Shown: one piece after another, positions 1 through 59,091 of the stretch
Layout of the letters: every line of letters begins with the position of its first letter
How positions within the stretch are numbered: the first letter of the stretch is position 1
DNA from: an uncultured Gammaproteobacteria bacterium
GTDB taxonomy: Bacteria; Patescibacteriota; Patescibacteriia; UBA1558; GWA2-36-10
Length of the DNA stretch: 64,000 nt
NCBI GenBank assembly: GCA_964633905.1
Contig: CAZWIT010000001.1
Location: 65,535 to 129,534, forward strand
Reading direction: 5' to 3'
Program-made: the position numbers and the translations under genes
Notes under the pieces: generated by a model
The model's database searches: none
What the model was told of the DNA's origin: nothing
What the model saw: only the letters and a program-made list of their open reading frames with translations

Positions 1-211
1 TAAAAAAGAAAAAACCGCAGTTTCAGAAGCCAGAAAGATGAAAGTGCCGGTCATTGCTTTGACTGATACCAATGTTAATCCCGAATTAGTAGATTATGCT
101 ATTCCGGCTAATGATGATGCCGTAAAATCAATTGAAGTTATTACTAATTTAGTAGCTGCTACTATCAAAGAAGCAAAAGCTGCTAGAACTCTTGCTACTC
201 CCACTAAATAA
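1..211 (+). CDS. rpsB: 30S ribosomal protein S2, C-terminal fragment (5' end lies outside the window)
   Basis: In-frame ORF ending at TAA 209-211 immediately upstream of tsf. Conserved rpsB-tsf gene order. C-terminal S2-like sequence (…LTDTNVNPELVDYAIPANDDAVKSIEVI…). Confidence 0.7.
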   Translation, partial: KKEKTAVSEARKMKVPVIALTDTNVNPELVDYAIPANDDAVKSIEVITNLVAATIKEAKAARTLATPTK

Positions 212-5139: not shown

Positions 5140-5295
5140 ATAAAAAAAACAGCTCAGCTTTTCCTTAAAAACTGGGCTTTTTTGTGTACAATTTTTATAT
5201 TGACAAAAATTATAGGAGTGCTAGCATATAGGCTTATCTAGCATAAAGGATGCTAAGTTCTTCGGAAGTAGTATCAAGGGGGTATAGGCAATTTG

Positions 5296-5370
5296 CCGCG
5301 CGTAGCTCAGCTGGACAGAGCACTCTCATTACGAAGAGAGAGGTCGGAGGTTCAAGTCCTTCCGCGTGCC
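5296..5370 (+). tRNA. tRNA, probably Val (anticodon TAC)
   Basis: Cloverleaf: D-arm GCTCAGCTGGACAGAGC, T-arm GGAGGTTCAAGTCCTTC, anticodon region CTCTC-ATTACGA(A)-GAGAG resembling E. coli tRNA-Val(UAC). The anticodon loop appears to be 8 nt and the acceptor stem has a mismatch, so it needs a tRNAscan check. It overlaps a spurious ORF 5250..5876. Confidence 0.6.
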
Positions 5371-5372
5371 CC

Positions 5373-5420
5373 CGGGCTCGCTGGCGTAAAAAAACGTCAG
5401 CGAGCCCTTTATTTTTGACA
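5373..5420 (+). terminator. Rho-independent terminator after the tRNA
   Basis: GGGCTCGCTGGCG-taaaaaaa-CGTCAGCGAGCCC stem followed by TTTATTTTT. Confidence 0.7.
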
Positions 5421-6006: not shown

Positions 6007-7050
6007 ATGTCAAAACAAGAAAATTCAGCAAAAAAGGAGCGTATTTTAACTGGCATGCGACCAACTGGCAGTCTGCACCTGGGACATTATGTTGGCGCTT
6101 TAGAAAATTGGATTAAATTGCAGAATGAGTATGACTGTCATTTTTTGATTGCTGATTATCAAGCCTTTGGTGATTATGCGGATAATATTTCTAAAATCAG
6201 AGATTCGGTTATCCAAGTAACAATAGATTGGTTGTCAGTTGGTTTGGATCCAAATAAAAATACTTTTGTTATTCAAAGCTATGTGCCAGAACACGCAGAG
6301 CTAGCCATGCTTTTGAGTATGATTACTCCTAGGGTATTAATTGATCGTAATCCAACTTTAAAAGACGAATCAGCTTTACAAAAAGATATTTCTTTAGGTT
6401 TTTATAATTATCCGGCTAGCCAAGCGGCTGATATACTTTTACCAAAAGCAAATTTAGTGCCAGTAGGCGAGGATCAGTTGCCTCACATTGAGCTTACTCG
6501 GGAAATTGCTAGAAGATTTAATCGTATGTACGGCGAAATTTTTCCTTTGCCCAAAGCTTTAGTAGGTAGGGTGCCGCGTTTAATAGGGATTGATGGTAAG
6601 GCTAAGATGAGTAAGAGTTTGGGTAATTGTATTTATTTGTCAGATAGTGCTGATTTGGTCGAGAAAAAAGTCAAAAAAATGTACACTGATCCAACTAGAC
6701 TTAAAGCCACTGATCCAGGTCATATTGAGGGTAATGTAGTTTTTACTTATTTAGACGCTTTTTATCATGACAAAACAGAGCTTGATAATTTAAAGAAAGA
6801 ATATCGGGCTGGTAAGCTAGGCGATGCTCAAGTAAAGAGTCTTTTGACAGGAATATTAAATAATTTTTTGGAGCCAATTAGAGAAAAAAGAGCTTTTTAT
6901 CAAGCTCATCCAGAAATGATTAAAGATGCCTTAATTGAAGGTACGCAAAAAAATAAAAAATTAGCAGCAACTACCATGGCCGAAGTTAAAGAAGCTATGA
7001 AAATAACAGCTTACGAAGACATTAAAAATATTAAAAAAATAATTTTATAA
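6007..7050 (+). CDS. trpS: Tryptophanyl-tRNA synthetase (housekeeping copy)
   Basis: TGSLHLGHYVGAL (HIGH-like) and KMSKSLGN motifs. AT-rich native codon usage. No SD. Confidence 0.95.
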   Translation: MSKQENSAKKERILTGMRPTGSLHLGHYVGALENWIKLQNEYDCHFLIADYQAFGDYADNISKIRDSVIQVTIDWLSVGLDPNKNTFVIQSYVPEHAELAMLLSMITPRVLIDRNPTLKDESALQKDISLGFYNYPASQAADILLPKANLVPVGEDQLPHIELTREIARRFNRMYGEIFPLPKALVGRVPRLIGIDGKAKMSKSLGNCIYLSDSADLVEKKVKKMYTDPTRLKATDPGHIEGNVVFTYLDAFYHDKTELDNLKKEYRAGKLGDAQVKSLLTGILNNFLEPIREKRAFYQAHPEMIKDALIEGTQKNKKLAATTMAEVKEAMKITAYEDIKNIKKIIL

Positions 7051-7213: not shown

Positions 7214-8356
7214 ATGGTTGGTGTAGATAGAGAAAGGTTAATTAATTTATTTTTTGATCTAGTTAGGATAAAAAGTCCTTCTGGCGAAGAGAGGGAGTTA
7301 GCTGTATTTATTTCAAATCTGTTGGAGCAATTGGATTTTTCGGTTACCAGTGATGCTTATGGGAATATTGTAGCCAAGCTTGCAGGCATTGGCGAGTCAA
7401 TAGTATTGTGTAGTCACATGGATACTGTGCCTATTGGTGGTGATTTTATTAGGCCGCAGATTGTTGATGGAAATAAGATTACTAGTGATGGTAATACTAT
7501 TTTAGGTGCGGATAACAAAGACTCGATAGCTGCTATTTTTGAAAGTATTTTTTTGGCTAGAGAAAATAAGTTATCTCATAGGCCAATAGAGCTAGTTTTT
7601 ACTAGGCAGGAAGAGTTGATTTCTCTTGGTGCTAAACAGCTAGATATGTCACTTATTTCTGGAAAGAATTGTATTATTTCAGATAATGCCGCGCCCTATG
7701 GCTTGATTACTTTAGGTGCGCCATATAATTATAGATTTAATATTGTGATCAATGGTAAGCGTTCTCATGTTAAAGAGCCAGAGCGTGGGGTTGATGTTTT
7801 TAAGATTTTGGCTAGGGCGATCGCTGTAGAAGGGTTACCCTTGGGCAGAATTGATGATTGGACTACTTCTAATTTAGCTCAGGGCTTTCTTGGTTTGGAT
7901 GGAGAGATAACTAAGGCAGATTTGAAGGTAGAAAATTTGTCAGACTATCCTAGAAATACTGTGCCAGACATTTGTTGCCTATTTGGAGAATTAAGAAGTT
8001 TAAAAGTTGAATCTTTGAAATTAGCTACAGATAATATTCGTATAGCCTTAGAAAAAGCAACAGCTTTTTATGGTGGCACCATTGATTTCCAGATTAATTC
8101 CGTAGCTGACGGATATTTGTATGATAAAGAAGATCCTCTAGTTGTTGAGATTGTATCCATTTTTAAAGATCAAAATATCGAGCCTCGATTTTTTGAATCA
8201 GTTGGCGGATCTGATGCCAATGTTTTAATTCATAAAGGCCTTAAGACCGTAGTCATTAGTTCGGCACATAGAGATAACCACAAAAAGACAGAATTTGTTT
8301 TGATAGATGAACTTGTATTGTTAGCAGATTTTTATTTGCGCGTAATATGCTCTTAA
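7214..8356 (+). CDS. M20-family metallopeptidase (ArgE/DapE/PepT-like)
   Basis: N-terminal LVRIKSPSGEE…, HMDTVP metal-binding motif, overall M20 architecture. Upstream TTGACA(7104)-TATAAT promoter. Confidence 0.75.
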   Translation: MVGVDRERLINLFFDLVRIKSPSGEERELAVFISNLLEQLDFSVTSDAYGNIVAKLAGIGESIVLCSHMDTVPIGGDFIRPQIVDGNKITSDGNTILGADNKDSIAAIFESIFLARENKLSHRPIELVFTRQEELISLGAKQLDMSLISGKNCIISDNAAPYGLITLGAPYNYRFNIVINGKRSHVKEPERGVDVFKILARAIAVEGLPLGRIDDWTTSNLAQGFLGLDGEITKADLKVENLSDYPRNTVPDICCLFGELRSLKVESLKLATDNIRIALEKATAFYGGTIDFQINSVADGYLYDKEDPLVVEIVSIFKDQNIEPRFFESVGGSDANVLIHKGLKTVVISSAHRDNHKKTEFVLIDELVLLADFYLRVICS

Positions 8357-8413: not shown

Positions 8414-9226
8414 TTAAGTAATTTTATTAATTATTTTTTTTACTTTATTTTTGGAAATTCTTTGTTGCCAGCCTTTGACGTTGATTTCATTATTTTTATT
8501 ATTACCTTCTTTTAGAGAAGTGCTGACAATAACTCCATTAGCATATTGTAATAATGTTTTAATATTTTTATGGTCAGCTCCGCTACCGATAAATATTGGG
8601 AAATTACCAACGCTATTTCTTAATTTTTTTAACTCATCAAGATTAGGCGCTTGGCCAGTCCAATTGCCAGTAATAATTAAAGCATCAGAGCCGCTCTTAA
8701 TTGCCATTTTTGCAGATTGATATAAATTGTATTTTGATAATATTTTTGAGTGCTTAACGTGAATATCGGTAAAAAGTAAAATATTATTTGCTTTTAATTG
8801 TTGGCGGTATTTAACAGCTTGTTTATATACAGGCTCAACTAAACCGCAACTGGTACGAACTTTATCTACAAATACAGGTATTCTAATAAATTTTAAATCT
8901 AAAGTTTTGGCAATGCTTAAGCTTGTTTTATAGTCATTCCACAGGGTGCTAATGCCGATTGGTAATGTGCTTTGTTTTTTAATTTTTTCTCCTAAATAAG
9001 TCATGGCGACAATAGTTTCAGGGTTTACCATTATTTGGTGGGGGATATCGTAATTATTTTCAAAAATAACAGCATCAACTCCACCATCACTAAAGGCTTT
9101 AAGATCACTTAAGGCATTCTGGCTAGCGATTTTAAAACCAGGGAAATCAGGATAAGCTAAAAGTGGGGGAAAATGCAGAGCCCCAATGATAATATTTTTA
9201 TTTTTTTTGAATATTTTTTTTAACAT
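8414..9226 (-). CDS. BtpA/SgcQ-family TIM-barrel protein
   Basis: Start MLKKIFKKNKNIIIGALHFPPLLAYPDFPGFK… is typical of the BtpA family (PF03437). Native AT-rich composition. Confidence 0.75.
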   Translation of the reverse strand: MLKKIFKKNKNIIIGALHFPPLLAYPDFPGFKIASQNALSDLKAFSDGGVDAVIFENNYDIPHQIMVNPETIVAMTYLGEKIKKQSTLPIGISTLWNDYKTSLSIAKTLDLKFIRIPVFVDKVRTSCGLVEPVYKQAVKYRQQLKANNILLFTDIHVKHSKILSKYNLYQSAKMAIKSGSDALIITGNWTGQAPNLDELKKLRNSVGNFPIFIGSGADHKNIKTLLQYANGVIVSTSLKEGNNKNNEINVKGWQQRISKNKVKKIINKIT

Positions 9227-9323: not shown

Positions 9324-10487
9324 TTAATTTGGTAACATCTTAGCTACCAATCTCATCGTTTCAAGGGCTTGGCCACTTTTGAGAGCAGCTTCAGCCATTT
9401 TGAAACCTTCGGCAAAAGATTTGCAATAACCAGCTAGGTAGTAGAGCAAGGAAGCGTTCGCATAGACAGTGCTCATGCGTTCGCCGTTAATTTCTCCAGA
9501 CAGGAGCTGGAGCGAATATTCGCCTTTATTGCCAATCGGGCGCACAGCTTCCAGTGGGATAGGGTGAATACCAAAATTTTCGGCACTAAGCTCGTATTCC
9601 AAAATTTCTTCATTACGCAATTCAGCAACTTGAGTACCACCATGGCACACAGAAGCTTCGTCCATACCAAAGATTCTTGATTCATCAGCAAAACCACGAA
9701 TAAATAGGCCGTGCTTGAGATGTGTTAAGCCTTTCTGATTAAGAATCAAATAAACTTCAGCTACGACGCGAGGCGGGATCAGTTGATTCACGCCCAGAAC
9801 ACGCCTGGTCATGAGTTTAGTGGATATAGGATTAGTGATGGGTCCGATGATGTCATTCATATGGGGTAGTTTAGCAAAGCTATGGGTTTGCAAATGAATC
9901 TTTTTGTAGCGAGTATCAAGTGCTTCCGTATACCCAAAATTATATTTTCTCAATGCTTCCATTACTTTGTCTTTGTCGGCAAAAGTATTAATGCGACAAA
10001 TTTTAGAAACAAAATCAGAACTACCATAAAGACCTTTATCAGCATTGGCAGGGGAACCGTGTTTGCACATCGGTATGCCATCAGAGGCAGCAATAAATGC
10101 TGACACCGTGCTAATATTAGCGGTAACGATCAGATCGCCACCCATGCCGCAATTATCCATTGCAAATTCCATTTCCGGGTTCAAGAATCCAAATTCGGAT
10201 TTAGCAATATCATGTTCAAAAATAGCAGCACAGATACCAGCAATTTGTTCAGCTGGACTCTTGGGCAGTGGATGACCGTGATGTTCTTCAAGACGCTTGT
10301 TCCATTGCCAGTTATAGGTAGCTTGGCTGTGCAGAGCGCAAAGGACAGCCACGCTTTGTATCTGCGCAAGGGCATTACCAGCGCATCCATCTAGCGTGTA
10401 GACACCCAAGGCGTAAGCTTCGTCATATGTCAAAGGAATATTCTGATAAGCATGATCTTTGAGTAGGTGCTTGACATCGATGGGCAT
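9324..10487 (-). CDS. Glycosyltransferase family 3 protein, anthranilate phosphoribosyltransferase (TrpD)-like paralog
   Basis: GMGGDL (the TrpD GTGGD PRPP motif) and CKHGSPANADKG (TrpD KHGNR region). SD AAGGAG 8 nt before ATG (MPIDVKHLL…). Elevated GC (~48%). The track ORF 9324..10532 includes a 5' extension. Confidence 0.7.
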   Translation of the reverse strand: MPIDVKHLLKDHAYQNIPLTYDEAYALGVYTLDGCAGNALAQIQSVAVLCALHSQATYNWQWNKRLEEHHGHPLPKSPAEQIAGICAAIFEHDIAKSEFGFLNPEMEFAMDNCGMGGDLIVTANISTVSAFIAASDGIPMCKHGSPANADKGLYGSSDFVSKICRINTFADKDKVMEALRKYNFGYTEALDTRYKKIHLQTHSFAKLPHMNDIIGPITNPISTKLMTRRVLGVNQLIPPRVVAEVYLILNQKGLTHLKHGLFIRGFADESRIFGMDEASVCHGGTQVAELRNEEILEYELSAENFGIHPIPLEAVRPIGNKGEYSLQLLSGEINGERMSTVYANASLLYYLAGYCKSFAEGFKMAEAALKSGQALETMRLVAKMLPN

Positions 10488-10519
10488 TGTTGGTGCTCCT
10501 TCTTTTAGGCTAGTTGCCT

Positions 10520-11023
10520 TTATCCCAACCACTCTATTAGCTTGTCCATTCCTAGTCTCACGGTATTGTGAATAGATATTATAACCATTTGATGAGATTC
10601 GGAATCTTTATTTCCATTAGGGTCTATTATGTCACTAACATCAGTGGATAATTCCCCGAATAATCTTATTTTATAAAAATATTGGGGGAATTGTTCTTTA
10701 AGTTTAGTCAGTATGTAAGAATCCATGGCCAATATTTGTTCAGCCTGGTGAATTATGTCGTTATCTATCGGAGTAGATTTTTTATCAATAGGTATTTCTA
10801 TACCTATATTATCCAGGTATGGTTTAGCCAAATTATATTCTTCTGAGTAATCACGAAGATTAAGATGTTTTGGTAAGGGTAGACCCATTGTGCCTTGTAA
10901 GCTTCTAGAAACTACACTTATAGTATCTTCTTTGCCTATTTTTTTTATTTCTTTTTGCATACATAATTCAGCAATCACTGAGCGATATATATTGCCTTTG
11001 CAGACTATTAAAATGGTTTTCAT
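10520..11023 (-). CDS. Low-molecular-weight protein tyrosine phosphatase / ArsC-like (CX5R P-loop)
   Basis: VCKGNIYRS P-loop near the N-terminus and a C-terminal DP motif. SD AAGGAGG 8 nt upstream. First gene of a minus-strand operon with the TrpD-like gene. Confidence 0.7.
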   Translation of the reverse strand: MKTILIVCKGNIYRSVIAELCMQKEIKKIGKEDTISVVSRSLQGTMGLPLPKHLNLRDYSEEYNLAKPYLDNIGIEIPIDKKSTPIDNDIIHQAEQILAMDSYILTKLKEQFPQYFYKIRLFGELSTDVSDIIDPNGNKDSESHQMVIISIHNTVRLGMDKLIEWLG

Positions 11024-11149
11024 TTCTTTAGCCTCCTTGTTTTGCGGGAAATTTGTAATATCGTTTTACAACCTAAGCTATAATGTTAAAGAGCAAGTCG
11101 ATAAATTAAACATAAATGTACGAAAAAGTCAATAAAAAAACTTCTTATC

Positions 11150-11425
11150 CTCTTGTTACAAATATAATATTTGTACTAAAAGGACGAGAAGCTTCCCGTG
11201 GTACCACCTTTATTATTTTGATTGTTATGACAAATTAAAAAATCTGTCAGTAAAACAGATCAAAATCACTTTTACCGACTCAAGCCCCATTAGCTTATGC
11301 TTATGGCGACATCAGTTAGCCCATGATTACGGAGGCTGCCGAGTTATCACTAACGCAATAACCATCTCTGCGTGCCCAACCCCGCAATTTGCGGGACACG
11401 CTTCATAGATTTTGTAATTTTCAAA
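11150..11425 (-). ncRNA. Candidate T-box riboswitch leader (minus strand) upstream of the phosphatase/TrpD-like operon
   Basis: The minus-strand RNA contains AAUAAAGGUGGUACCACGGG. This matches the T-box antiterminator consensus AAUUAGGGUGGUACCGCGG at 18/20 positions. It lies in a GC-richer, hairpin-dense ~270-nt leader between a candidate minus-strand promoter (TTGACA at plus 11460-11465 as complement) and the ATG at 11023. A terminator helix could not be folded convincingly by eye. Confidence 0.4.
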
Positions 11426-11480
11426 GTATTAATATTATCTTATATTTTATTATTATTTTTGTCAAGCTTGTTATTAATGC

Positions 11481-11515
11481 CTTGACATAAGCCTTTTTTT
11501 ATGTATAATACCATT
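11481..11515 (+). promoter_or_regulatory. Consensus sigma70 promoter for tRNA-Trp (TTGACA-16-TATAAT)
   Basis: cTTGACAtaagcctttttttatgTATAATacc, ~20 nt upstream of the tRNA 5' end. The minus-strand -35 TTGACA (complement of plus 11460-11465) lies just upstream, ~16 nt away (back-to-back, not overlapping). Confidence 0.6.
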
Positions 11516-11537
11516 ATATTTAGTTCATGTCATTGGT

Positions 11538-11612
11538 GGGCGCGTCGGTTAATTGGTAAACCACTGGTCTCCAAAACCAGGACTGGGGGTTCGAGTCCCT
11601 CCGCGCCTGCCA
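11538..11612 (+). tRNA. tRNA-Trp (anticodon CCA), CCA encoded
   Basis: Acceptor GGGCGCG/CGCGCCU, D-arm GGTTAATTGGTAAAACC, anticodon stem-loop CTGGT-CTCCAAA-ACCAG, T-loop TTCGAGT, discriminator G, 3' CCA. Confidence 0.85.
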
Positions 11613-11634
11613 CCCTAAAATATGGCTCAGATCT

Positions 11635-11660
11635 AGCTCAGATTTGAGCTTTTTATTTTT
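11635..11660 (+). terminator. Intrinsic terminator after tRNA-Trp
   Basis: AGCTCA-GATT-TGAGCT followed by TTTTATTTTT. Confidence 0.6.
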
Positions 11661-11827
11661 GACAATTATTTAGAATTATGGTAATTTCATAGGCAATTTA
11701 AGGTACATTGATAATATAAAGAAAGTACCATTTTCTATACAAAAACTGATATTTTTAGCGATTTTGGAAATATAGTTTTTACTTGTTAACTTCACCACAA
11801 CTAACACAGGAAAACGGAGGTGATGAC

Positions 11828-12862
11828 ATGCAAAATAAGCGTATCCTGACAGGTATGCGTACGACCGGCAGATTGCACCTTGGTCATTTTGTTGGCGCGT
11901 TGCATAGTTGGCTGGAATTGGAAAGAGAATATGAATGTTATTTTTTGTTAGCTGATGTTCAAGCTCTTACTACTCATTTTGATCGCGTGGCTGAGATTGA
12001 GGAATCAGTACGACAAGTGGTCATTGACTGGTTGTCGGTTGGCCTTGATCCCAAGCATTCTGCTTTTGTACTGCAATCAGCAGTGCGGGAATATCCGGAA
12101 CTTACTACCTATTTAGCCTTGCTAACCAGCATGGCTGAGCTAGAGAGAAATCCTACGCTAAAGGACGAGATCAAGCAACACGGCATGTCTTCAGTGAATT
12201 TGGGATTTATGATGTATCCTGTTTCACAGGCAGCTGATATTTTGCTATTCACTCCTGATCCCAGTGATCCGGAAGCTGAACTGCTAGTGCCAGTTGGCGA
12301 AGATCAGGTGCCTCATATTGAAATGAGTCGCGATTTGGCGCGGGCTTTTAATCGCCAATATGGCGATACTTTTGTTTTGCCTAAAGCTAAGGTTGGTTTT
12401 ATTCCGCGTTTGGGTGATTTGAGCGGTGGTCAGAAGAAGATGGGTAAAAGCTATGGTAATGCTATCTACCTATCTGATAATAGTAGCGATGTTTCAGAAA
12501 AAGTTCGTCTGGGTACCACTGATCCTAATAAGGCTAGAAAAAATGATCCGGGTAATCCTGACATTTGTCCAGTTTTTTCTTATCAGCAAATCTTTAATGA
12601 ATCAGAAGAGTTTCAGATTCGTAAGGATTGTATAGCTGGTAGTTTGGGTTGTGTTGATTGTAAGGCCCGCTTGGCTCAATCAATCAACACTTTTCTAGAG
12701 CCAATGCGTGATCGTAGATCAGATGTTGAACAAAAACCCGATATTGTTGCTGAAGCTGTTTGGTCCGGCACCAACCGTGCTTGTGAAATTGGTCAGAGGA
12801 CCATGGAGGAAGTGCGGCGGGTAATGCACCTGGACTACCCAAGTCTTCCCAAGCCGTCCTAA
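11828..12862 (+). CDS. Second tryptophanyl-tRNA synthetase paralog (TrpRS-II), higher GC, KMGKS variant
   Basis: TGRLHLGHFVGAL and KMGKSYGN (KMSKS→KMGKS). ~60% identity to the copy at 6007. RBS GGAGGTGA 5 nt before ATG 11828; the track ORF 11783 is a 5' extension. GC ~45% against ~35% background. Confidence 0.9.
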   Translation: MQNKRILTGMRTTGRLHLGHFVGALHSWLELEREYECYFLLADVQALTTHFDRVAEIEESVRQVVIDWLSVGLDPKHSAFVLQSAVREYPELTTYLALLTSMAELERNPTLKDEIKQHGMSSVNLGFMMYPVSQAADILLFTPDPSDPEAELLVPVGEDQVPHIEMSRDLARAFNRQYGDTFVLPKAKVGFIPRLGDLSGGQKKMGKSYGNAIYLSDNSSDVSEKVRLGTTDPNKARKNDPGNPDICPVFSYQQIFNESEEFQIRKDCIAGSLGCVDCKARLAQSINTFLEPMRDRRSDVEQKPDIVAEAVWSGTNRACEIGQRTMEEVRRVMHLDYPSLPKPS

Positions 12863-12877
12863 GGGAGGTTAGTGGTC

Positions 12878-14281
12878 ATGGAAGAAACCAAAATGTTTTC
12901 CGGTCGATGGCCCCTGGTGGGGGCCAAAGACGACACGATCCGAGCTTTCTTGGATCAGCAGTTTAAGGAAACTATTCGTTGGGGTGAAAGCGAAGTCCTG
13001 GGTTTTCCCAGTATGTCGCCACACCCTTTGGGTTTGGATATTTTGCAACAGGGTTTTCTGTTGCACGCTAACAATATTATGACCCTGACTCGTAGTAGGG
13101 GAGAAAAAGGTTTTGCTGGTTTTCAAAATATCGAGCGTGATTTGATTAATATGGTTGGCAACCTGTTGGGTGCCAAGCAAGTTGACGGCTACGTTACTTC
13201 TGGTGGAACTGAAGCTAATATGATGGGTTTGTGGGTTGGTCGTGAGAAGCTACGGCACACTGTTGTTGATCCGAGTGATAATCGGGTAGCGGTGTTAGCT
13301 TCGTCAGCTTCCCATTATAGTCTGCGTAAGGCTTGTAATCTTTTGGATTTGGGCGAGGGTATTTGGACTCCTTGTGCCAAGCCTTGCTTGGATCCTATTG
13401 GTAATAAGCCGATTAAGCATGTTTTTCATCCGTCAAACAATGGCGGTGGCCTGCATTTCATCAAGTGCGATGAAAGTGGTCGTATCGATGTTGTTGAATT
13501 GGAACGACGCATTTGTCATTTGCGTGAGCATTACGGCATTCGTCGTTTCCTGATTTTTTTGAATGAAGGTACGACTTTGACTGGCGCTATGGACAATGTC
13601 CAAAGCGTCGGCTCTCTAGTTTCTTGTTTGCGTAATGAAGTTTCGCAGCAGTGGGATTTTTATATTCATGTTGACGCTGCTTATGGTGGCTTTGTTTACC
13701 CCTTCTTGCGTGAAACGCAAGACATGAATTGGGGTTTTCGAGTGCCTCAAGTTGATTCTATGACAGTTGATCCGTATAAGATGGGGCAGTGCCCCTTGGC
13801 TGAAGGGATTTTCTTGTGTCGGCGTTCCGAACAAGGTGATGGTCCGCAATGCTATATCGAGCGTTCGGCTCATTATGTTGATGGTGCTCAAGATGATACT
13901 TTGATTGGTTCGCGTGCCGGCGCTTTTGCCGCAGCTTGCTGGGCTGTTTTCCAGCGAGAGGGTTCGAGCGGCTTTGCCGGTATGCATTCCGCATCTTTGC
14001 TGCAACGTGACTATTTGGCTGATCGTTTGGCCAAGTTGTCTTTGCAACCTCAGTGTCATTTGAATATGGTATCTTTCTATTTTCCTCAAGATCTGAATAG
14101 TGCTGTTTGGCGTCGGATGGCTGATTTGGTTACCGACTATCGTTTGATGTGGGATTGGTTTAGCCGTGATCCTGAGGATCCGGAAGATCATCCCCGCAAG
14201 ATCGTCAAGTTTAATATTACTCGTGACGTAAAAAGCGAGTGGATTGATAACTTCATTTCCGATTTGGAGAAGATTTTTTGA
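12878..14281 (+). CDS. PLP-dependent group II amino-acid decarboxylase (aromatic/tyrosine-decarboxylase-like)
   Basis: SGGTEANMMGL (S-G-G-T-E-[AS]-N signature) and TVDPYKMG (PLP-lysine region of MfnA/SPL-like decarboxylases). SD AGGGAGG 9 nt before ATG. GC ~52%. Translationally coupled to the upstream trpS paralog (16 nt gap). Confidence 0.8.
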   Translation: MEETKMFSGRWPLVGAKDDTIRAFLDQQFKETIRWGESEVLGFPSMSPHPLGLDILQQGFLLHANNIMTLTRSRGEKGFAGFQNIERDLINMVGNLLGAKQVDGYVTSGGTEANMMGLWVGREKLRHTVVDPSDNRVAVLASSASHYSLRKACNLLDLGEGIWTPCAKPCLDPIGNKPIKHVFHPSNNGGGLHFIKCDESGRIDVVELERRICHLREHYGIRRFLIFLNEGTTLTGAMDNVQSVGSLVSCLRNEVSQQWDFYIHVDAAYGGFVYPFLRETQDMNWGFRVPQVDSMTVDPYKMGQCPLAEGIFLCRRSEQGDGPQCYIERSAHYVDGAQDDTLIGSRAGAFAAACWAVFQREGSSGFAGMHSASLLQRDYLADRLAKLSLQPQCHLNMVSFYFPQDLNSAVWRRMADLVTDYRLMWDWFSRDPEDPEDHPRKIVKFNITRDVKSEWIDNFISDLEKIF

Positions 14282-14417
14282 TAATTCCTGATTTTACAAA
14301 GGAAATATGCAAAGGGGGCACTTAAAGTGCCCTCTATTTTTATTATTTTTTCTTGACAATCTTTATTCAAAATTGTATCTTTAAACAAGACGGCTTAATT
14401 ATTTAGACGGCTTAATT

Positions 14418-15803
14418 ATGTTGCTATCAACATTTATCTTACTGCTTGTTTGGCTAATAAATTTTTCCTTATTGATATTTATTTTAGTTCAAAAAAATCG
14501 TCCGCGGCGCTGGCCAATATTTACTATGGTAGCGCTGCTTTTTATTTGGCAAGCTTCAGAGTTAGCTAATATTTTTTTATTTTTGGACAGTCCTTATCTC
14601 TTGTTGTCTGTACGTTTTGGTCTGCTGCCAACTTTATATTTAGCGCCAACTTGGGTTTGGCTAACTTGGTCGCTATTTGATCACTGGTCGACAACTAAGC
14701 TATTTAAAAAAATATTATGGTTTGTGCCAGCTATTATTTTGTCGCCATTGGTTTTTACTGACTATAATTTGAGCAAAGTTATTTTTGATAAAGGAGAATT
14801 ATCTTATGTACCTGGTCCGATTTATATTTATTTTGTTTTATATTTTGCCTTATTGATGGCCTATGGTTTGTATTATTTAATTCGTAATCGCAAAACAGCA
14901 GCTAGTATTGTCAAAAGACAAATTGATTATATTTTTATTGCCACTGCCTTAGTAGCTCTTTCTGCTATTTTGTTAAACGTAGTTTTACCTTTATTAGGTG
15001 TTTCTAATTTATATTATATTGGTGTTAATGTTTCTATATTTTTCACAGCTATTGTTACTTATGCCTTATTTCATGAAAGATTTTATGATTTAAGGATAGC
15101 TAGTTATCGGACAGTAGTTGATTTGTGGCGTTTGTTTATTACTGGTGCTATTTTTTATTTATTATTTATACTGCTTAAGCAGGTAATAGTAGTAGACTTT
15201 AATCAAGGTGCCAATATTATTGTTGGCTTCATTGTTTTAGGACTATTAGCACCAATTGTGTTTGAGGGAGTGAGTCGTTCTTTGGATTATTTGATTGTGA
15301 ATCCAGCTTGGGACTACACGCAAGCCCTGGATAATATTGCTAAAATTTTACGTTCCAGCCAAGATTTAAATTTTTTACTAGCTAATCTTACTAAGGAAAT
15401 TAGTCATATTATTGATTATAATGATATTTATTTGTATTTATCTAAGCGCCATAAGCCTGATATTTTTTATCAAGTCTTTCCTAGCGGTGAAAGATTATTG
15501 GCTCTTAATGAAAATCTCTGGCTACAAAAATTAGCTCAAGATAAAGAAATTAAGCAAACTGCCGAATTGGTTTATTGGCAAGGGGATTCGCAAATCACGG
15601 CCGAGCTTTTAAATAGTCATATTGACATTGCTTTGCCAGTGTTTTATAATCAACAGCTTTTGGGAATATTGTTAATAGATAATAAACAAAAACTATTATC
15701 CATACAACAATTGGAATTTTTAATTGAAGTTAATAAATATCTAGATATTGCCATTGGCAGTTTATTATTGTATGAGCAGGCCTTAGTAGGAAAGCAATCG
15801 TAG
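14418..15803 (+). CDS. Membrane protein: histidine-kinase-type 7TM sensor domain + C-terminal GAF domain, no kinase output
   Basis: N-terminal ~7 TM helices homologous to the N-terminus of the HK at 23314, then a GAF-like region (…QQLLGILLIDNKQKLLSIQQLEFLIEVNKYLDIAIGSLLLYEQA). Confidence 0.65.
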   Translation: MLLSTFILLLVWLINFSLLIFILVQKNRPRRWPIFTMVALLFIWQASELANIFLFLDSPYLLLSVRFGLLPTLYLAPTWVWLTWSLFDHWSTTKLFKKILWFVPAIILSPLVFTDYNLSKVIFDKGELSYVPGPIYIYFVLYFALLMAYGLYYLIRNRKTAASIVKRQIDYIFIATALVALSAILLNVVLPLLGVSNLYYIGVNVSIFFTAIVTYALFHERFYDLRIASYRTVVDLWRLFITGAIFYLLFILLKQVIVVDFNQGANIIVGFIVLGLLAPIVFEGVSRSLDYLIVNPAWDYTQALDNIAKILRSSQDLNFLLANLTKEISHIIDYNDIYLYLSKRHKPDIFYQVFPSGERLLALNENLWLQKLAQDKEIKQTAELVYWQGDSQITAELLNSHIDIALPVFYNQQLLGILLIDNKQKLLSIQQLEFLIEVNKYLDIAIGSLLLYEQALVGKQS

Positions 15804-15833
15804 GAAGAAATAATATTATATTAATATAATAAA

Positions 15834-16532
15834 ATGGAAAAATTTTTAATACAACAAAATTTAGTTTTATTTATTGTTGGCCTAGTTAATTTATTAATGG
15901 GCGTGTTTATTTTTAGTCGCGGAGTAAAGAATAAAATAAATTTGTATTTTAGTTGCATGACTTTGGCTAATTTTTTTTGGTCTTTAAGTTTAATACTTTT
16001 TAATTTAAGTTCCAATCAAGAGACATTGAGATTTTTTGCTAGCCTGCCCTATGCCTTTGCTTTTTTAGTGGTGGTATTTTTGTTTTATTTTTCTATATAT
16101 TTTCCTTATAAAATTTTTAATTTACCAAAAATTTATAAATGGTTATTAAACTTTATTGTGGTTATTGTGTTAGTTTATACTACCGTTTTTTATAGATTGT
16201 TCGTTGTAGAAACAATAATCTGGCCTGGTAATATGGCAAATTTTAATTTATTATCTTATGTAATATACACTTTATTATTAGTTTTATTAATGTTGGCGGC
16301 TCTTATATTTTTATTTTATAAATATCGTTTGGCGGAGGGTTTATTTAAATGGCAATTAAAAGTTGTATTTTGGGGAGTATTTTTAGGTACTTTTTTTGGC
16401 AGTTATTTTAATTTATTCTCAATGTATAATGATGATTTTGATTATGTTCATTTAGGCCCTTTATTTACATTATTTATTAATTTTATAGTTTTAGGTTTTA
16501 TTATAATGCCAAAGGATAAAATAAATAATTAA
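15834..16532 (+). CDS. Stand-alone 7TM sensor-domain membrane protein (paralog 1)
   Basis: 232 aa, all TM. Shares the KYRLAEGLFKWQLK… motif with the HK N-terminus and with the adjacent paralog. Confidence 0.6.
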   Translation: MEKFLIQQNLVLFIVGLVNLLMGVFIFSRGVKNKINLYFSCMTLANFFWSLSLILFNLSSNQETLRFFASLPYAFAFLVVVFLFYFSIYFPYKIFNLPKIYKWLLNFIVVIVLVYTTVFYRLFVVETIIWPGNMANFNLLSYVIYTLLLVLLMLAALIFLFYKYRLAEGLFKWQLKVVFWGVFLGTFFGSYFNLFSMYNDDFDYVHLGPLFTLFINFIVLGFIIMPKDKINN

Positions 16533-16535
16533 TTT

Positions 16536-17237
16536 ATGAATATTTTTTTAACAGTACAAATTATAACATTAACCTTTGCAACTTTAATTAATTTGTTGAT
16601 GAGTATTTTAGTGGCTAAGCGTGGCTTAAAAAATAAAATAAATAGGTATTTTAGCATTGTAACATTTTTTAATTTTTTATGGAGCTTTACAGTAATATGT
16701 GCTTTTTCTGGAGTTGCAATAGAGTTAGTTAATTTTTTTGATAAAACCACTAATTTTCTTAGTATTGGTATTATTTTATCTTTGTTTTATTTTTCTTTAC
16801 ATTTTCCCTATCAAAGAGAAGAAATAGATAAAGTTAAAACTACTATAATTTGGTTATTTACTATTTTATTATCCAGTATAATTTATACTAAGTGGTTTAT
16901 TATTAGTACTGTTTGGAGAATGAGACCATTTGATTATATTTCGTATTTTAATAGATATGGCTATTTTATTTATGTTACTTATTTTTTTATGTTAGCAATT
17001 TGGTCAATTTATTTATTATTTGTTAAATATAAACATGCTGAGGGTTTAGCTAAAAAGCAATTAAAATGGTTAATTTTAAGCATTAGTATTGGCTTATTTG
17101 GTGGCGCCTATTTTAATATATTGTTAAATTACTTAGGAGAATTTAGTTTAGGTTGGCTTGGTCCAATTTTTACTTTATTTATGAACATTACTGTTTTCTA
17201 TTTTATTATATCCTCTAAAGATAAGATTAATGACTAG
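16536..17237 (+). CDS. Stand-alone 7TM sensor-domain membrane protein (paralog 2)
   Basis: 233 aa. KYKHAEGLAKKQLKWL… motif. Tandem to the paralog at 15834. Confidence 0.6.
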   Translation: MNIFLTVQIITLTFATLINLLMSILVAKRGLKNKINRYFSIVTFFNFLWSFTVICAFSGVAIELVNFFDKTTNFLSIGIILSLFYFSLHFPYQREEIDKVKTTIIWLFTILLSSIIYTKWFIISTVWRMRPFDYISYFNRYGYFIYVTYFFMLAIWSIYLLFVKYKHAEGLAKKQLKWLILSISIGLFGGAYFNILLNYLGEFSLGWLGPIFTLFMNITVFYFIISSKDKIND

Positions 17238-47632: not shown

Positions 47633-47730
47633 ATTGCTACAATTTAGTAAATAGCCGCAGATAGTGGGTTTTTAGCTAATATTAGCTAGATATAAATCCT
47701 GCCGAGGTAAAAATTTCTTAGTTTTTATTG

Positions 47731-47754
47731 TCTGCGCTATGACGCAGATTTTTT
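47731..47754 (+). promoter_or_regulatory. L10-leader-like attenuator hairpin immediately upstream of rplJ
   Basis: TCTGCG-CTATGA-CGCAGA + TTTTTT, ending 16 nt before the rplJ ATG inside a ~140-nt 5' UTR. Confidence 0.5.
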
Positions 47755-47769
47755 AATAACAACAATAAT

Positions 47770-57700: not shown

Positions 57701-58525
57701 CTAGCCGCGCCGCGCCTTGGCAGCCGCGAGCAGCTGGTTGGCGATGACACGGGCCTCGCCGTTCACGGGCTTCAGCGGCTCGTGATCCAGCTTGGCAATG
57801 GCTTCATCCTGCACCGTGAGGTCACGGATGACCTCGTCGATGCTCTCGACGTCCGGGATCGCGATCGCGATCCCCATGCCGCCGTGGTCTCTCATGCAGA
57901 CCAGGCAGAGCCTCCAGACCTTGTCGCCGAGCGGAACCTGGGGCACGCCGTTCTTCCCGAACACGGGAATCCCGGCCTTGCCATCGATGCCGGTGCCCAG
58001 CTTGGTGACCATCTGCAGGGTGTCGGCCTCGTCTTCGCTGCGCTTCGTCTTCATCTGTGAGACGAACTCGCAGACACGGATGAAGACGCGGTCGGACGGG
58101 TAGTCCGGGTTGGTGGCGTAGAAGGCCAGCGCCGCGTTGATGTCCTTGGCGTACTGGTCGTTCTCCATCGCCATCGCCGACTTCTGCTGCTGCAGAGCCT
58201 CGATGCAATCGCGGACCCGGTCGTGGTCATGGTTCATCATGCCCACGGCCTCGTCCTGGTCGGGCCAGATCCGCATGACGAGCATGCGGTAGCCGTCGCC
58301 CGGAACCTGCAGGCCGCGCCGACGGTCGTCGATGACGACCGACAGGGGCTTGGCGGTGCCGATGCCGTGTTCGGCCGCGCCGTCTTGGACGTACACGACG
58401 CCGTAGGCGTTGCGGTACTCGCTGCGGGTGTTGCCGGTGGCGGTGGTCGGAGCGGTGGCGGTGGTCGGAGCGGTGGCGGCGGGAGCAGCGGCCTTGGGGG
58501 CCTTGGTGTTGGTCTTACGAGCCAT
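57701..58525 (-). CDS. Hypothetical 274-aa protein, ~65% GC foreign cassette gene 'B' (Ala/Pro/Thr-rich N-terminal tail)
   Basis: Coherent high-GC3 codon usage on the minus strand. SD AGGAGG 8 nt before ATG. Own consensus promoter P2 and downstream hairpins. The N-terminus MARKTNTKAPKAAAPAATAPTTATAPTTATG… is low-complexity. No motif recognised. Confidence 0.6.
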   Translation of the reverse strand: MARKTNTKAPKAAAPAATAPTTATAPTTATGNTRSEYRNAYGVVYVQDGAAEHGIGTAKPLSVVIDDRRRGLQVPGDGYRMLVMRIWPDQDEAVGMMNHDHDRVRDCIEALQQQKSAMAMENDQYAKDINAALAFYATNPDYPSDRVFIRVCEFVSQMKTKRSEDEADTLQMVTKLGTGIDGKAGIPVFGKNGVPQVPLGDKVWRLCLVCMRDHGGMGIAIAIPDVESIDEVIRDLTVQDEAIAKLDHEPLKPVNGEARVIANQLLAAAKARRG

Positions 58526-58623
58526 CTTGCTTACCTCCTGAAAATTAGAATGTGCACATCCCCTAAAGTGACAACAGTACCAACAGTCAGTACGTTTATT
58601 AGGGGATTTTTCATTATATCATA

Positions 58624-58652
58624 TATACAAATATTTGTCAAGGGTATTGAAA
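58624..58652 (-). promoter_or_regulatory. Promoter P2 (minus): TTGACA-17-TG-n-TATAAT
   Basis: Minus strand TTGACAaatatttgtatatatgaTATAAT. Confidence 0.65.
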
Positions 58653-58713
58653 AGCCCCGGCACTAGGTGCGTCGGGGCTTGGGGCGAAGTGGTACAACAC
58701 AGTCGGCTTGCTA

Positions 58714-59091
58714 CTAGATGTAGCAATTGATCTTGACCCTGGAAATGACTTCTCCAGAGACGCGATCACGAAGTAGTACTTCGTAATTGCCCACCACCAA
58801 GGTGGCTTTGGGATCGTTCATGACTTTAGCCAACAAGCGGCCATTCTTATAGATTTCCATGTAGGCCAGCTTCCTGGCCTGGTTGGATACCATGCAGATG
58901 GGCTTTTCATCAGCCAAGCGGAGGCGGATCGAATCGCCATCGACACAGACGTAGCTAGTATCGATATAGCGCGGGTTGGGCCGAACCAGGATGGTCGCTT
59001 CCCCAGGCTTGGTGATCGGCTGCGAATTGCAGGCGGCAAGCAGAGTCAGCGAAAGAAACAGCAGGCTGGCGATCAGGAAGAACTTACGCAT
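58714..59091 (-). CDS. Putative lipoprotein, GC ~55%, foreign cassette gene 'C'
   Basis: Signal peptide plus lipobox LLAAC. SD AAGGAGG 6 nt before ATG. Own promoter P3. Confidence 0.55.
   Translation of the reverse strand: MRKFFLIASLLFLSLTLLAACNSQPITKPGEATILVRPNPRYIDTSYVCVDGDSIRLRLADEKPICMVSNQARKLAYMEIYKNGRLLAKVMNDPKATLVVGNYEVLLRDRVSGEVISRVKINCYI

Follow-up and report, generated by a model that had tools for sequence, protein, structure and literature searches.

Why would a bacterium keep a second gene for tryptophanyl-tRNA synthetase (TrpRS) directly beside a gene for a pyridoxal 5'-phosphate (PLP)-dependent decarboxylase, with the gene for tRNA-Trp immediately in front of both? The question is raised by a block at positions 9324 to 14281 of a 64-kb stretch of contig CAZWIT010000001.1 (assembly GCA_964633905.1), the whole of which we call the window. 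The block holds the second synthetase gene (trpS2), the decarboxylase gene, the tRNA-Trp gene and, on the opposite strand, genes for a low-molecular-weight (LMW) phosphatase-family protein and a TrpD-like phosphoribosyltransferase. We propose, with a probability of about one half, that the region represents, in this genome, a cluster for tryptophan (Trp) homeostasis that is conserved in Patescibacteria and organized as three transcription units. Among the observations behind the proposal are that decarboxylase genes of this type lie near tRNA-Trp, and in all but one case near trpS, in Patescibacteria and that the genes on the opposite strand lie behind a T-box leader that displays the Trp codon.

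The four open reading frames (ORFs) of the block were checked against Pfam and NCBIfam and by motif reading, the loci of relatives (L numbers below) were read over 10 kb on each side of an anchor gene, and gene functions are assigned throughout from sequence and genomic context. The first-pass annotation of the block had reported four genes with characteristic motifs, a tRNA-Trp gene, raised G+C content and Shine-Dalgarno (SD) sites, and all of these are present. The features of the region are as follows:

6007-7050, plus strand: trpS1, apparently an extra, Chloroflexi-like TrpRS gene (TIGR00233, 290 bits; KMSKS; no four-cysteine motif; no strong SD; host-like composition)
7214-8356, plus strand: M20-family metallopeptidase/amidohydrolase (Pfam PF01546), a recurrent neighbor of the cluster
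8414-9226, minus strand: BtpA/SgcQ-family phosphate-binding (beta/alpha)8 barrel (PF03437, 198 bits; TIGR00259, 199 bits)
9324-10532, minus strand: ORF of the TrpD-like phosphoribosyltransferase, gene 9324-10487 (Pfam Glycos_transf_3, PF00591; GMGGD, KHGS)
10520-11023, minus strand: LMW phosphatase-family gene (PF01451; C-X5-R-S)
11134-11415, minus strand: T-box leader with UGG (Trp) specifier (RF00230; short Stem I, T-box, terminator hairpin, U7)
11437-11509, both strands: divergent promoter pair (consensus scan, pattern matches only)
11538-11612, plus strand: tRNA-Trp gene, anticodon CCA (ARAGORN; Rfam, 60.6 bits)
11783-12862, plus strand: ORF of trpS2, gene 11828-12862 (TIGR00233, 262 bits; HLGH, KMGKS, C-x20-C-x6-C-x2-C)
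12872-14281, plus strand: ORF of a group II PLP-dependent amino acid decarboxylase, MfnA-like branch, gene 12878-14281 (PF00282; SGGTEAN, DPYKMG)
14418-15803, plus strand: HisKA_7TM membrane protein (PF16927), the first of three paralogues that extend to 17237

Three of the ORFs were given corrected starts. The trpS2 gene starts at the ATG at 11828 with GGAGG in front, the decarboxylase gene at the ATG at 12878 with GGGAGG in front, and the TrpD-like gene at the ATG at 10487 with a GAAGGAG SD in front. The phosphatase start (ATG at 11023) has AAGGAGG as its SD, and the apparent overlap of the phosphatase gene with the TrpD-like gene disappears with the corrected start. The decarboxylase start lies 15 nt past the trpS2 stop, and the two genes, which had been described as fused, are separate ORFs without overlap. 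In the first of the three proposed units, the LMW phosphatase gene, the TrpD-like gene and probably the BtpA gene would form a minus-strand operon gated by the T-box. The tRNA-Trp gene would be the second, transcribed divergently from a promoter region common to it and the T-box operon. Its promoter on the plus strand (TTGACA-16-TATAAT) matches the consensus at 12 of 12 positions and lies back to back with a promoter-like TTGACA-17-TAAGAT just upstream of the T-box on the minus strand (both are pattern matches only), and a terminator-like hairpin follows the tRNA gene at 11624-11650. We treat the tRNA-Trp gene as a separate unit because it has a perfect promoter and a terminator of its own. 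Finally, trpS2 and the decarboxylase gene would be cotranscribed as a two-gene unit, at the 3' end of which lies a terminator-like hairpin (14313-14335).

The decarboxylase and its partner synthetase

How closely is the decarboxylase tied to Trp? The trpS-decarboxylase pair recurs outside this genome and does so together with the tRNA gene. Among nonredundant loci of the Patescibacteria type, tRNA-Trp lay within 10 kb of the decarboxylase gene in 13 of 13 and trpS in 12 of 13. Loci with Bacteroidota-type paralogues served as a negative control for linkage, and neither tRNA-Trp nor trpS was present at any of 78 Bacteroidota or other loci, the decarboxylases of which are 27 to 33% identical; neither the 13 nor the 78 loci are phylogenetically independent. 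In relatives in which trpS2 and the decarboxylase gene lie on a common contig, the spacer between them is 14 to 19 nt. Moreover, the link spans four TrpRS lineages in a neighbor-joining (NJ) tree (the TrpRS2 clade, L005, L007/L008, and fusions with TrpRS of the archaeal/eukaryotic type), and its orientation varies: the two genes may point the same way, in either order, and they diverge in L007 and L008.

The two activities also occur in one polypeptide. TrpRS::decarboxylase fusions form three clusters at 50% identity, P0104, P0241 and P0242, of which the second and third are 74% and 49% identical to the first. P0104 (L006, 369-2762, plus strand) contains an archaeal/eukaryotic-type TrpRS and adjoins a tRNA-Trp gene with A73 (83-156, minus strand) on a contig of 25% G+C; a scan of IMG/VR for a giant-virus origin of this fusion lineage gave no match. 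Natural fusions such as these argue that the coupling of synthetase and decarboxylase is functional. P0243 (793 aa), a candidate for a fourth fusion, was rejected, as Pfam shows two tandem TrpRS domains in it and no decarboxylase. The decarboxylases of L007 and L008 are extended at the N terminus by a segment that contains four CxxC pairs and matches Zn_ribbon weakly.

We note that the tRNA-Trp gene beside trpS is duplicated in some relatives, with two identical tandem copies in L003 (5092-5434) and two copies in the Portnoybacteria-like L100 to L102. L003 and L087 have small ORFs in the interval from tRNA-Trp to trpS2, and a role for these as precursor peptides was considered and set aside: the one that was scanned, a 104-aa ORF of L087, has no family match, and such ORFs have no counterpart in the window.

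What the enzyme does can be approached through its family and fold. The 467-aa protein scores 79.4 bits against PF00282 (gathering threshold, 27). It falls under all NCBIfam equivalog cutoffs, and its nearest models are MfnA and histidine decarboxylase. By score, it is neither MfnA (TIGR03812; 162.8 versus a cutoff of 299.4) nor the enterococcal tyrosine decarboxylase TDC (TIGR03811; 39.9 versus 905.3). An AlphaFold (AF2) model (pLDDT, 89.5; pTM, 0.91) matches the fold of MfnA best (3f9t; TM, 0.86), followed by Met, Ala/Ser, Glu and His decarboxylases, and all of its best structural matches are group II decarboxylases. Moreover, the PLP lysine (K301), the ring-stacking histidine (H146), the aspartate that contacts the pyridine nitrogen (D266) and the catalytic-loop tyrosine (Y333) are invariant in the cluster-linked homologues. 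Because the group II fold and the catalytic residues are both kept, the protein is predicted to be a real alpha-decarboxylase that yields an amine. It is the linkage to trpS and tRNA-Trp that points to Trp as the probable substrate.

The group of orthologues is small (46 to 60% identity), and the cluster-linked decarboxylases of Patescibacteria form a clade of their own, apart from the Bacteroidota enzymes. When GTDB representative genomes were scanned with the decarboxylase alignment, no close orthologue came up, and most matches were Bacteroidota paralogues at 27 to 33% identity.

The pairing of a synthetase with a decarboxylase has precedents. The presence of aminoacyl-tRNA synthetase genes beside tyramine and histamine decarboxylase clusters has been called "a general feature," and the cluster-linked synthetases are believed to maintain a supply of charged tRNA during decarboxylation of the amino acid (PMC3315439, PMC12607914). 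The cluster-linked tyrS genes form their own clade, with more than 80% mutual similarity versus 52% to the other tyrS of the same genome (PMC3315439). We conclude that the tyrS-tdc and hisS-hdc clusters of lactic acid bacteria are the closest known analogue of the trpS2-decarboxylase pair, an analogue that the first-pass annotation had missed together with the T-box (PMC3315439, PMC12607914). In the tyrS-tdc-tyrP-nhaC and hdcA-hisS clusters of enterococci and lactobacilli, as in the window, the synthetase gene lies directly beside the decarboxylase gene, the linked synthetase belongs to a distinct clade (60 to 69% identity within the TrpRS2 clade versus 47% to TrpRS1), and a T-box for the cognate tRNA belongs to the locus. 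The window differs in the amino acid, Trp instead of Tyr or His, in a patescibacterial host, and in the enzyme, which is a 467-aa MfnA-like protein instead of a TDC of about 620 aa or a pyruvoyl histidine decarboxylase. Moreover, the Trp cluster includes a tRNA gene, and fused synthetase-decarboxylase proteins exist. Thus, while the combination is already known for Tyr and His, what is new is the Trp version, its other decarboxylase branch, the fusions and the inclusion of the tRNA gene, and the pairing extends the arrangement to a third amino acid and a distant phylum.

By analogy with tyrS-tdc and hisS-hdc, the decarboxylase would most likely convert Trp to tryptamine and CO2, and a coexpressed TrpRS2 would keep tRNA-Trp charged while Trp is drained and tryptamine accumulates. 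Tryptamine is a competitive inhibitor of TrpRS (PMC12607914). That the decarboxylase makes tryptamine while TrpRS2 protects translation is, judged by this analogy, an even bet. If tryptamine, a TrpRS inhibitor, is indeed the product, it could affect the hosts of these epibionts. A literature search for the family membership of the Trp decarboxylase of Clostridium sporogenes found nothing.

A T-box predicted to read tRNA-Trp

How are the genes on the opposite strand controlled? With Rfam at gathering thresholds, no regulatory RNA was called, and the T-box emerged when E-value thresholds were applied to a short region. A permissive scan of the 760 bp that separate the phosphatase gene from trpS2 returned a full-length T-box leader on the minus strand (match, 11415-11177). 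The match spans positions 1 to 219 of the RF00230 model and scores 58 bits (E=5e-10 for the whole window); the short Stem I (24 nt versus 76 nt in the model) keeps it under the gathering score of 93. There was no other T-box match across the 64-kb window, and a search upstream of trpS1 and trpS2 found none. The leader contains the T-box sequence AGGUGGUACCACG, an antiterminator with a 7-nt bulge, and a terminator hairpin (dG, -25.7 kcal/mol; z, -7.5 against shuffles) followed by U7. The SD (AAGGAGG) and ATG of the phosphatase gene lie about 80 nt past the terminator. As the leader ends in an intrinsic terminator, it would act on transcription.

Set beside other T-boxes of RF00230 (the Trp leaders of Firmicutes and the short-Stem-I leaders of actinobacteria), the window leader is alike in its T-box, 7-nt-bulge antiterminator, terminator and U run. 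It is also alike in having a specifier codon followed by a purine and a UGGN bulge that matches the tRNA discriminator. It differs in that Stem I is truncated and has no distal platform, as in the ileS T-boxes of actinobacteria, and in that the genes it controls have no known role in Trp metabolism. In a literature search, no paper linked T-box riboswitches to Patescibacteria.

Is the leader specific for Trp? The same leader precedes the TrpD-like operon in L001, L003, L007, L087, L094 and L095, despite differing gene orders, and it is also present in many metagenome loci anchored on the TrpD-like gene alone. In 16 distinct copies from relatives, the UGG specifier is present in all 16, and the 3' bulge of Stem I is invariant as R-(U/C)-UGG-G. 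Both helices of Stem I covary across these copies, the lower one (e.g., GCGU/ACGC, GCUAGA/UCUAGC and GAUCAG/CUGAUU) as well as the upper one (e.g., CCCGC/GCGGG, CCUGG/CCAGG and CCCCU/AGGGG). The T-box of L092 has a canonical long Stem I and reads GAA-UGG-A. Moreover, the leader base opposite the tRNA discriminator is C in 5 of the 16 and U in the other 11, and it is A or G in none. A pairing base restricted to C and U demands G73, and G73 is what the tRNA-Trp genes adjoining T-box-bearing clusters have; that of the window combines it with the anticodon CCA and an encoded CCA end. The alternative registers UUG (Leu) and GGG (Gly) would need A73 and U73, respectively. Because Stem I covaries, UGG is invariant, the pairing base matches G73 and the other registers would call for other discriminators, we regard the Trp specificity of the T-box as established at the level of sequence. 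The earlier view that the block centers on Trp thus stands, with a Trp-specific T-box in control of the TrpD-like operon.

The tRNA-Trp of the cluster is therefore the predicted ligand of the T-box as well as the predicted substrate of TrpRS. When uncharged, its CCA anticodon would pair with UGG and its G73-CCA 3' end with the UGGU bulge of the antiterminator. With the tRNA bound, the terminator would fail to form and the TrpD-like operon would be transcribed. Since uncharged tRNA-Trp would open the operon, the operon would be a response to Trp starvation. The T-box also stands before other genes, namely, LMWPc - PvcA/DIT1-like - CofD in L092 and GCS2 - AstE/AspA in L090, and in L008 it precedes an unclassified 234-aa protein, similar in size to the GNAT protein of L101, and then M20. 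The common denominator of all these operons appears, from their leaders, to be induction by uncharged tRNA-Trp. In known T-box regulons, induction by uncharged tRNA marks supply functions: synthesis, uptake and charging.

What might the operon supply? The TrpD-like protein keeps the fold family of TrpD and the motifs that bind phosphoribosyl pyrophosphate (PRPP) and Mg2+ (GMGGD, N-I-S-T, KHG, GPITNP and GMDE), which align to the solved TrpD structures 9ucw, 1kgz and 4gtn. It scores 140 bits on TIGR01245, under the cutoff of 199.05. At the position of the arginine that holds the anthranilate carboxylate it has His, and KHGN has become KHGS; that arginine (R164 in the TrpD of Sulfolobus solfataricus) and the KHGN asparagine are anthranilate-binding residues. 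The protein differs from TrpD in its partners as well, which are BtpA, PfkB, HAD and LMW phosphatase. We conclude from these residues that it is probably not a bona fide anthranilate phosphoribosyltransferase. Because the PRPP/Mg2+ motifs are kept and the anthranilate-binding residues are replaced, PRPP-dependent transfer onto an acceptor other than anthranilate is expected, and in the operon that transfer would be followed by sugar-phosphate steps.

The LMW phosphatase scores 47.3 bits against PF01451 (threshold, 23.2) and has the loop VCKGNIYRS. A natural LMWPc::TrpD-like fusion, P0456 (L095, 9001-10818, plus strand), lies behind a Trp T-box and supports a joint function of the adjacent phosphatase and TrpD-like genes of the window. 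BtpA follows the TrpD-like gene on the same strand in every locus and is probably the last gene of the T-box-controlled operon. The idea that BtpA is a specific relative of TrpA was dropped, as a single-sequence match to 3tha was not sharpened by a family profile, which found generic phosphate-binding barrels in the Protein Data Bank (PDB). A literature search on the function of BtpA/SgcQ gave nothing useful. The search for other trp genes was confined to trpB, which was not found in the window; the Pfam tables of relatives list no trp gene besides a TrpB-like gene in L008 (15884-17101, minus strand), 2 kb from a Trp T-box. We further note a Trp_repressor-family gene (PF01371) in L087 (19215-19538, minus strand), 7 kb from the cluster, and in L092 (12625-16818, plus strand) a run of LMWPc, PvcA/DIT1-like (isonitrile-synthase family), CofD and a second PvcA/DIT1-like gene beside the trpS2-decarboxylase pair.

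Across relatives, the region resolves into two modules. Module A, a widespread core, reads T-box(Trp) -> [LMWPc, GATase or EamA] - TrpD-like - [GNAT - M20] - [HAD - PfkB] - BtpA - [M20 or AstE]. Module B consists of tRNA-Trp and trpS, with the decarboxylase gene directly downstream of trpS in a subset of loci. The TrpD-like protein alone is represented by more than 120 protein clusters at 58 to 73% identity from Parcubacteria, Falkowbacteria, Nomurabacteria and others; in three sampled contexts, BtpA and a Pyridoxal_deC gene were present in all three and trpS in two. The cluster contains or adjoins M20 genes in L001, L005, L008, L094 and L101.

Patescibacteria account for much of bacterial diversity. 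Most have yet to be cultured, and they are believed to rely on hosts for their amino acids. Many are thought to lack amino acid biosynthesis, including that of Trp. We speculate, as a tentative proposal that may well be wrong, that the T-box operon is a new, starvation-induced route of Trp acquisition, made up of a TrpD-like enzyme acting on a nonanthranilate acceptor, BtpA, PfkB-like protein, HAD/LMW phosphatases and M20/GNAT proteins, with tRNA-Trp, trpS and the decarboxylase as a consuming or balancing arm. A riboswitch that reads tRNA-Trp gives a handle on enzymes otherwise called hypothetical, as it indicates that they are wanted when Trp is short, and it turns the set into a testable hypothesis on Trp acquisition. 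The role of the TrpD-like/BtpA operon is to us a more interesting question than the pairing of the decarboxylase.

The two synthetases and the history of the block

Which of the two synthetases is the odd one? TrpRS1 and TrpRS2 are 47% identical. TrpRS2 scores 262.3 bits on TIGR00233 (cutoff, 176.75) and has the class I signatures, with HLGH present and both lysines retained in KMGKS. Its Trp pocket (YPxSQAAD, GEDQ) is that of TrpRS1 and, column by column, of at least 97 of 106 relatives. The position at which mutation gives indolmycin resistance in Bacillus TrpRS (the His43 equivalent) is Gln in TrpRS1, in 25 of 25 members of the TrpRS2 clade and in 100 of 106 others. Because the pocket and the indolmycin-position residue are unchanged, TrpRS2 appears to have neither the marks of a resistance enzyme nor any hint of a different substrate, and the earlier suggestion of a resistance-type synthetase is not borne out.

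The best solved relatives of TrpRS2 are 2g36 (E=7e-81), the Fe-S TrpRS of Thermotoga maritima, and 1yi8 (E=9e-77), TrpRS II of Deinococcus radiodurans (also 2a4m). TrpRS2 has the four-cysteine motif in common with the former and differs from the latter in having no nitric oxide synthase (NOS) partner. TrpRS1 belongs to the same broad subfamily, and the likeness to either structure is thus not specific to TrpRS2. What sets the TrpRS2 clade apart sits on the KMSKS loop: a universal Gly nine residues upstream is Asp in 25 of 25 clade members versus 0 of 103 others, and KMGKS replaces KMSKS in 24 of 25 versus 8 of 103. The four-cysteine motif is present in 24 of 25 members of the clade and in 70 of 103 other family members, and it is missing from TrpRS1 and its Chloroflexi-like relatives.

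Homologues of TrpRS2 form a group at 60 to 69% identity, followed by a gap to 56% or less. In the NJ tree, for which sequences were sampled by similarity to TrpRS2, they form a monophyletic, decarboxylase-linked clade that is sister to the mainstream TrpRS of Patescibacteria. TrpRS1 is 64 to 66% identical to TrpRS labeled Dehalococcoidia/SAR202 versus 45 to 50% to those of mainstream Patescibacteria. TrpRS2 is, on these grounds, the likely cluster-native enzyme, because it has the canonical place beside tRNA-Trp and its clade is sister to Patescibacteria TrpRS. The copy that looks like an addition, of Chloroflexi-like origin and gained by this lineage, is TrpRS1, because it lacks the four cysteines, is Chloroflexi-like in identity, is host-like in composition and, of all genes compared, is conserved best with L001. 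Thus, the earlier view of TrpRS2 as the odd copy is not supported. The two enzymes would presumably divide their labor.

Does the composition of the block indicate a recent arrival? The window has 34% G+C, trpS2 44.5%, the decarboxylase gene 46% (and not the 52% first estimated), and the TrpD-like gene 44%; the phosphatase gene is host-like at 32.5%. The claim that all four genes are raised in G+C therefore holds for three. G+C at third codon positions (GC3) is raised in the same three (TrpD-like, 0.39; trpS2, 0.37; decarboxylase, 0.43; window median, 0.255) and ordinary in BtpA (0.24), the phosphatase (0.27) and trpS1 (0.25). Amino acid composition was rejected as the cause, since GC3 is raised too. 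The reported concentration of SD sites in the block was confirmed: of 51 long ORFs, 9 have a strong SD, and these include the four genes of the block (hypergeometric p, ~5e-4).

Neither property is peculiar to this genome. The TrpD-like, trpS and decarboxylase families are also GC3-rich in L001 (0.50 to 0.58) and L007 (0.52 to 0.59), as are trpS and the TrpD-like gene in L101, which has no decarboxylase. Moreover, the GC3-rich genes stand out within single operons whose remaining genes are host-like, as in L007 (11735-15916, minus strand), where GC3 is 0.30 for GATase, 0.52 for TrpD-like, 0.43 for HAD, 0.25 for PfkB and 0.32 for BtpA. Such mosaics in L007, L001 and L101 suggest gene-by-gene exchange or gene-specific codon selection for the TrpD-like, trpS and decarboxylase genes of Patescibacteria at large. 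We conclude that the GC3 anomaly is a property of gene families across the phylum and not evidence of recent arrival here, and that raised G+C and SD use are no sign of a recent island in this case. The pattern would fit an exchange of individual genes between Patescibacteria, and it would also fit an old transfer from a lineage of higher GC that was followed by partial amelioration.

The order of genes tells the same story. A relative, L001 (GCA_964540095), has exactly the order of the window: trpS1, M20, BtpA, TrpD-like, T-box, tRNA-Trp, trpS2, decarboxylase and 7TM. Identities between the two are 86% for trpS1, 56% for M20, 73% for BtpA, 66% for TrpD-like, 69% for trpS2, 59% for the decarboxylase and 51% for 7TM. 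The block has diverged in step with its flanks. With the same order and flanks in L001 and its modules Patescibacteria-wide, it is not an accessory island private to this genome, as had been supposed. A literature search found no paper on this cluster, and a paper on horizontal gene transfer in Patescibacteria makes no mention of these genes.

Competing explanations and neighboring features

How well does a tryptamine-forming decarboxylase, shielded by TrpRS2, fare against other accounts? Several observations weigh against it. The decarboxylase lies below every equivalog cutoff, and its nearest characterized relatives act on Tyr/Asp, His, Ser, Ala and Met. Unlike the tyrS-tdc and hisS-hdc clusters, the window has no TyrP/HdcP-type precursor/product antiporter next to the pair, and the T-box gates the TrpD-like/BtpA operon and not trpS2, a wiring unlike that of tyrS-tdc. 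EamA-type or unclassified membrane proteins are present in the loci of some relatives. Moreover, the TrpRS2 pocket holds no change that would explain insensitivity to tryptamine. Finally, many clusters of this type have no decarboxylase, and the slot after trpS holds a 10-TM membrane protein in L101; the decarboxylase is therefore accessory rather than core. The main rival account is that the decarboxylase serves an intermediate of a Trp-supply pathway, together with TrpD-like, BtpA, PfkB, HAD and M20 proteins, and stands beside trpS only through membership in one Trp regulon. It neighbors TrpD-like/BtpA in the window and in L001, L003, L007, L087, L093, L094, L095 and L114, its subthreshold scores would fit an enzyme of another substrate, homologues of it are fused to HAD phosphatases and methyltransferases (P0082, P0110, P0026 and P0030), and induction of the TrpD-like operon by Trp starvation would suit supply better than drain. 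However, no locus in which a T-box was found has the decarboxylase within the unit that the T-box controls, and the tightest link of the decarboxylase, in short spacers and in fusions, is to trpS and not to TrpD-like. Most TrpD-like clusters lack the decarboxylase, and in L090 and L092 the pair occurs with neither TrpD-like nor BtpA; we find a role in Trp supply doubtful. Far more improbable is that the PLP enzyme acts on the aminoacyl-tRNA-Trp made by TrpRS2, in the manner of SepCysS, SelA and SepSecS. Such a role would suit an enzyme that is always beside a tRNA-Trp gene and a TrpRS and whose N-terminal partners are TrpRS in the fusions and a four-CxxC zinc ribbon, possibly RNA binding, in L007 and L008. 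An esterified carboxylate, however, cannot undergo decarboxylation, and every catalytic residue of a decarboxylase is kept, including the protonating loop Tyr; the fold neighbors are all decarboxylases of free amino acids, the TrpRS2 pocket is ordinary, and the tRNA gene is also explained by the T-box.

The remaining accounts concern the synthetases and the origin of the block more than the enzyme. The block had been taken for a horizontally acquired island devoted to a secondary metabolite derived from Trp or tryptamine, or to resistance against a Trp analogue, with TrpRS2 as the self-resistance copy. Raised G+C and GC3 and the concentrated SD sites would fit such an origin, as would a GC3 that is lower in the window (0.37 to 0.43) than in L001 (0.50 to 0.58), as expected for amelioration from a higher-GC donor, and L092 has PvcA/DIT1-like and CofD genes behind a Trp T-box beside the pair. 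L001, however, has the block in the same position and flanks, with block and flanks diverged to a similar degree, every component family occurs throughout Patescibacteria, and the same families are GC3-rich in L007 (and trpS and TrpD-like in L101). Moreover, it is TrpRS1 that looks foreign while TrpRS2 groups with Patescibacteria, the Trp pocket and the indolmycin-position residue are unchanged, and the block contains no biosynthetic genes, so that neither the secondary-metabolite module nor the island as a whole strikes us as likely. Nor do we see much likelihood that the TrpRS copies differ mainly in their dependence on a cofactor, unrelated to the decarboxylase, with TrpRS1 as a backup insensitive to iron supply or oxidants. 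TrpRS2 has the C-x20-C-x6-C-x2-C motif and 2g36 as its best solved relative, the motif is as frequent in its clade and absent from TrpRS1 and Chloroflexi-like relatives as described above, and TrpRS1 is the gene best conserved with L001. This account, in which the Fe-S cluster of TrpRS2 is predicted from the motif, leaves the conserved pairing, the fusions and the tRNA-Trp linkage unexplained, and it could hold alongside a tryptamine-forming decarboxylase protected by TrpRS2.

Directly downstream of the decarboxylase, three consecutive paralogues (14418-17237, plus strand) consist only of the 7TM region of histidine kinases. A HisKA_7TM neighbor is also present in L001 and L002, as a conserved feature of loci with a TrpRS2-clade gene, and a full 7TM-GAF-HisKA-HATPase kinase lies upstream of the cluster in L003 and L087. 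These proteins may represent a sensor linked to the cluster.

Elsewhere in the window, a segment of foreign composition at 57701-59091 (minus strand) directly follows tRNA-Glu and tRNA-Val genes. It encodes a 274-aa ORF with a GC3 of 0.84, an Ala/Thr/Pro-rich N terminus and no Pfam match, and a companion 125-aa lipoprotein-like ORF, both with a strong SD. Unlike the Trp block, this segment looks like a genuinely recent insertion. Between cysS and trpS1, at 5295-5373 (plus strand), lies a tRNA-like gene of 62% G+C that scores 42 bits on the Rfam tRNA model; ARAGORN reads an 8-nt anticodon loop, "tacg," as Val or Arg, with a mismatched acceptor stem. Finally, a match to the ribosomal protein L10 leader is present at 47637-47763 (plus strand; 40 bits versus a gathering score of 44; E=0.006).

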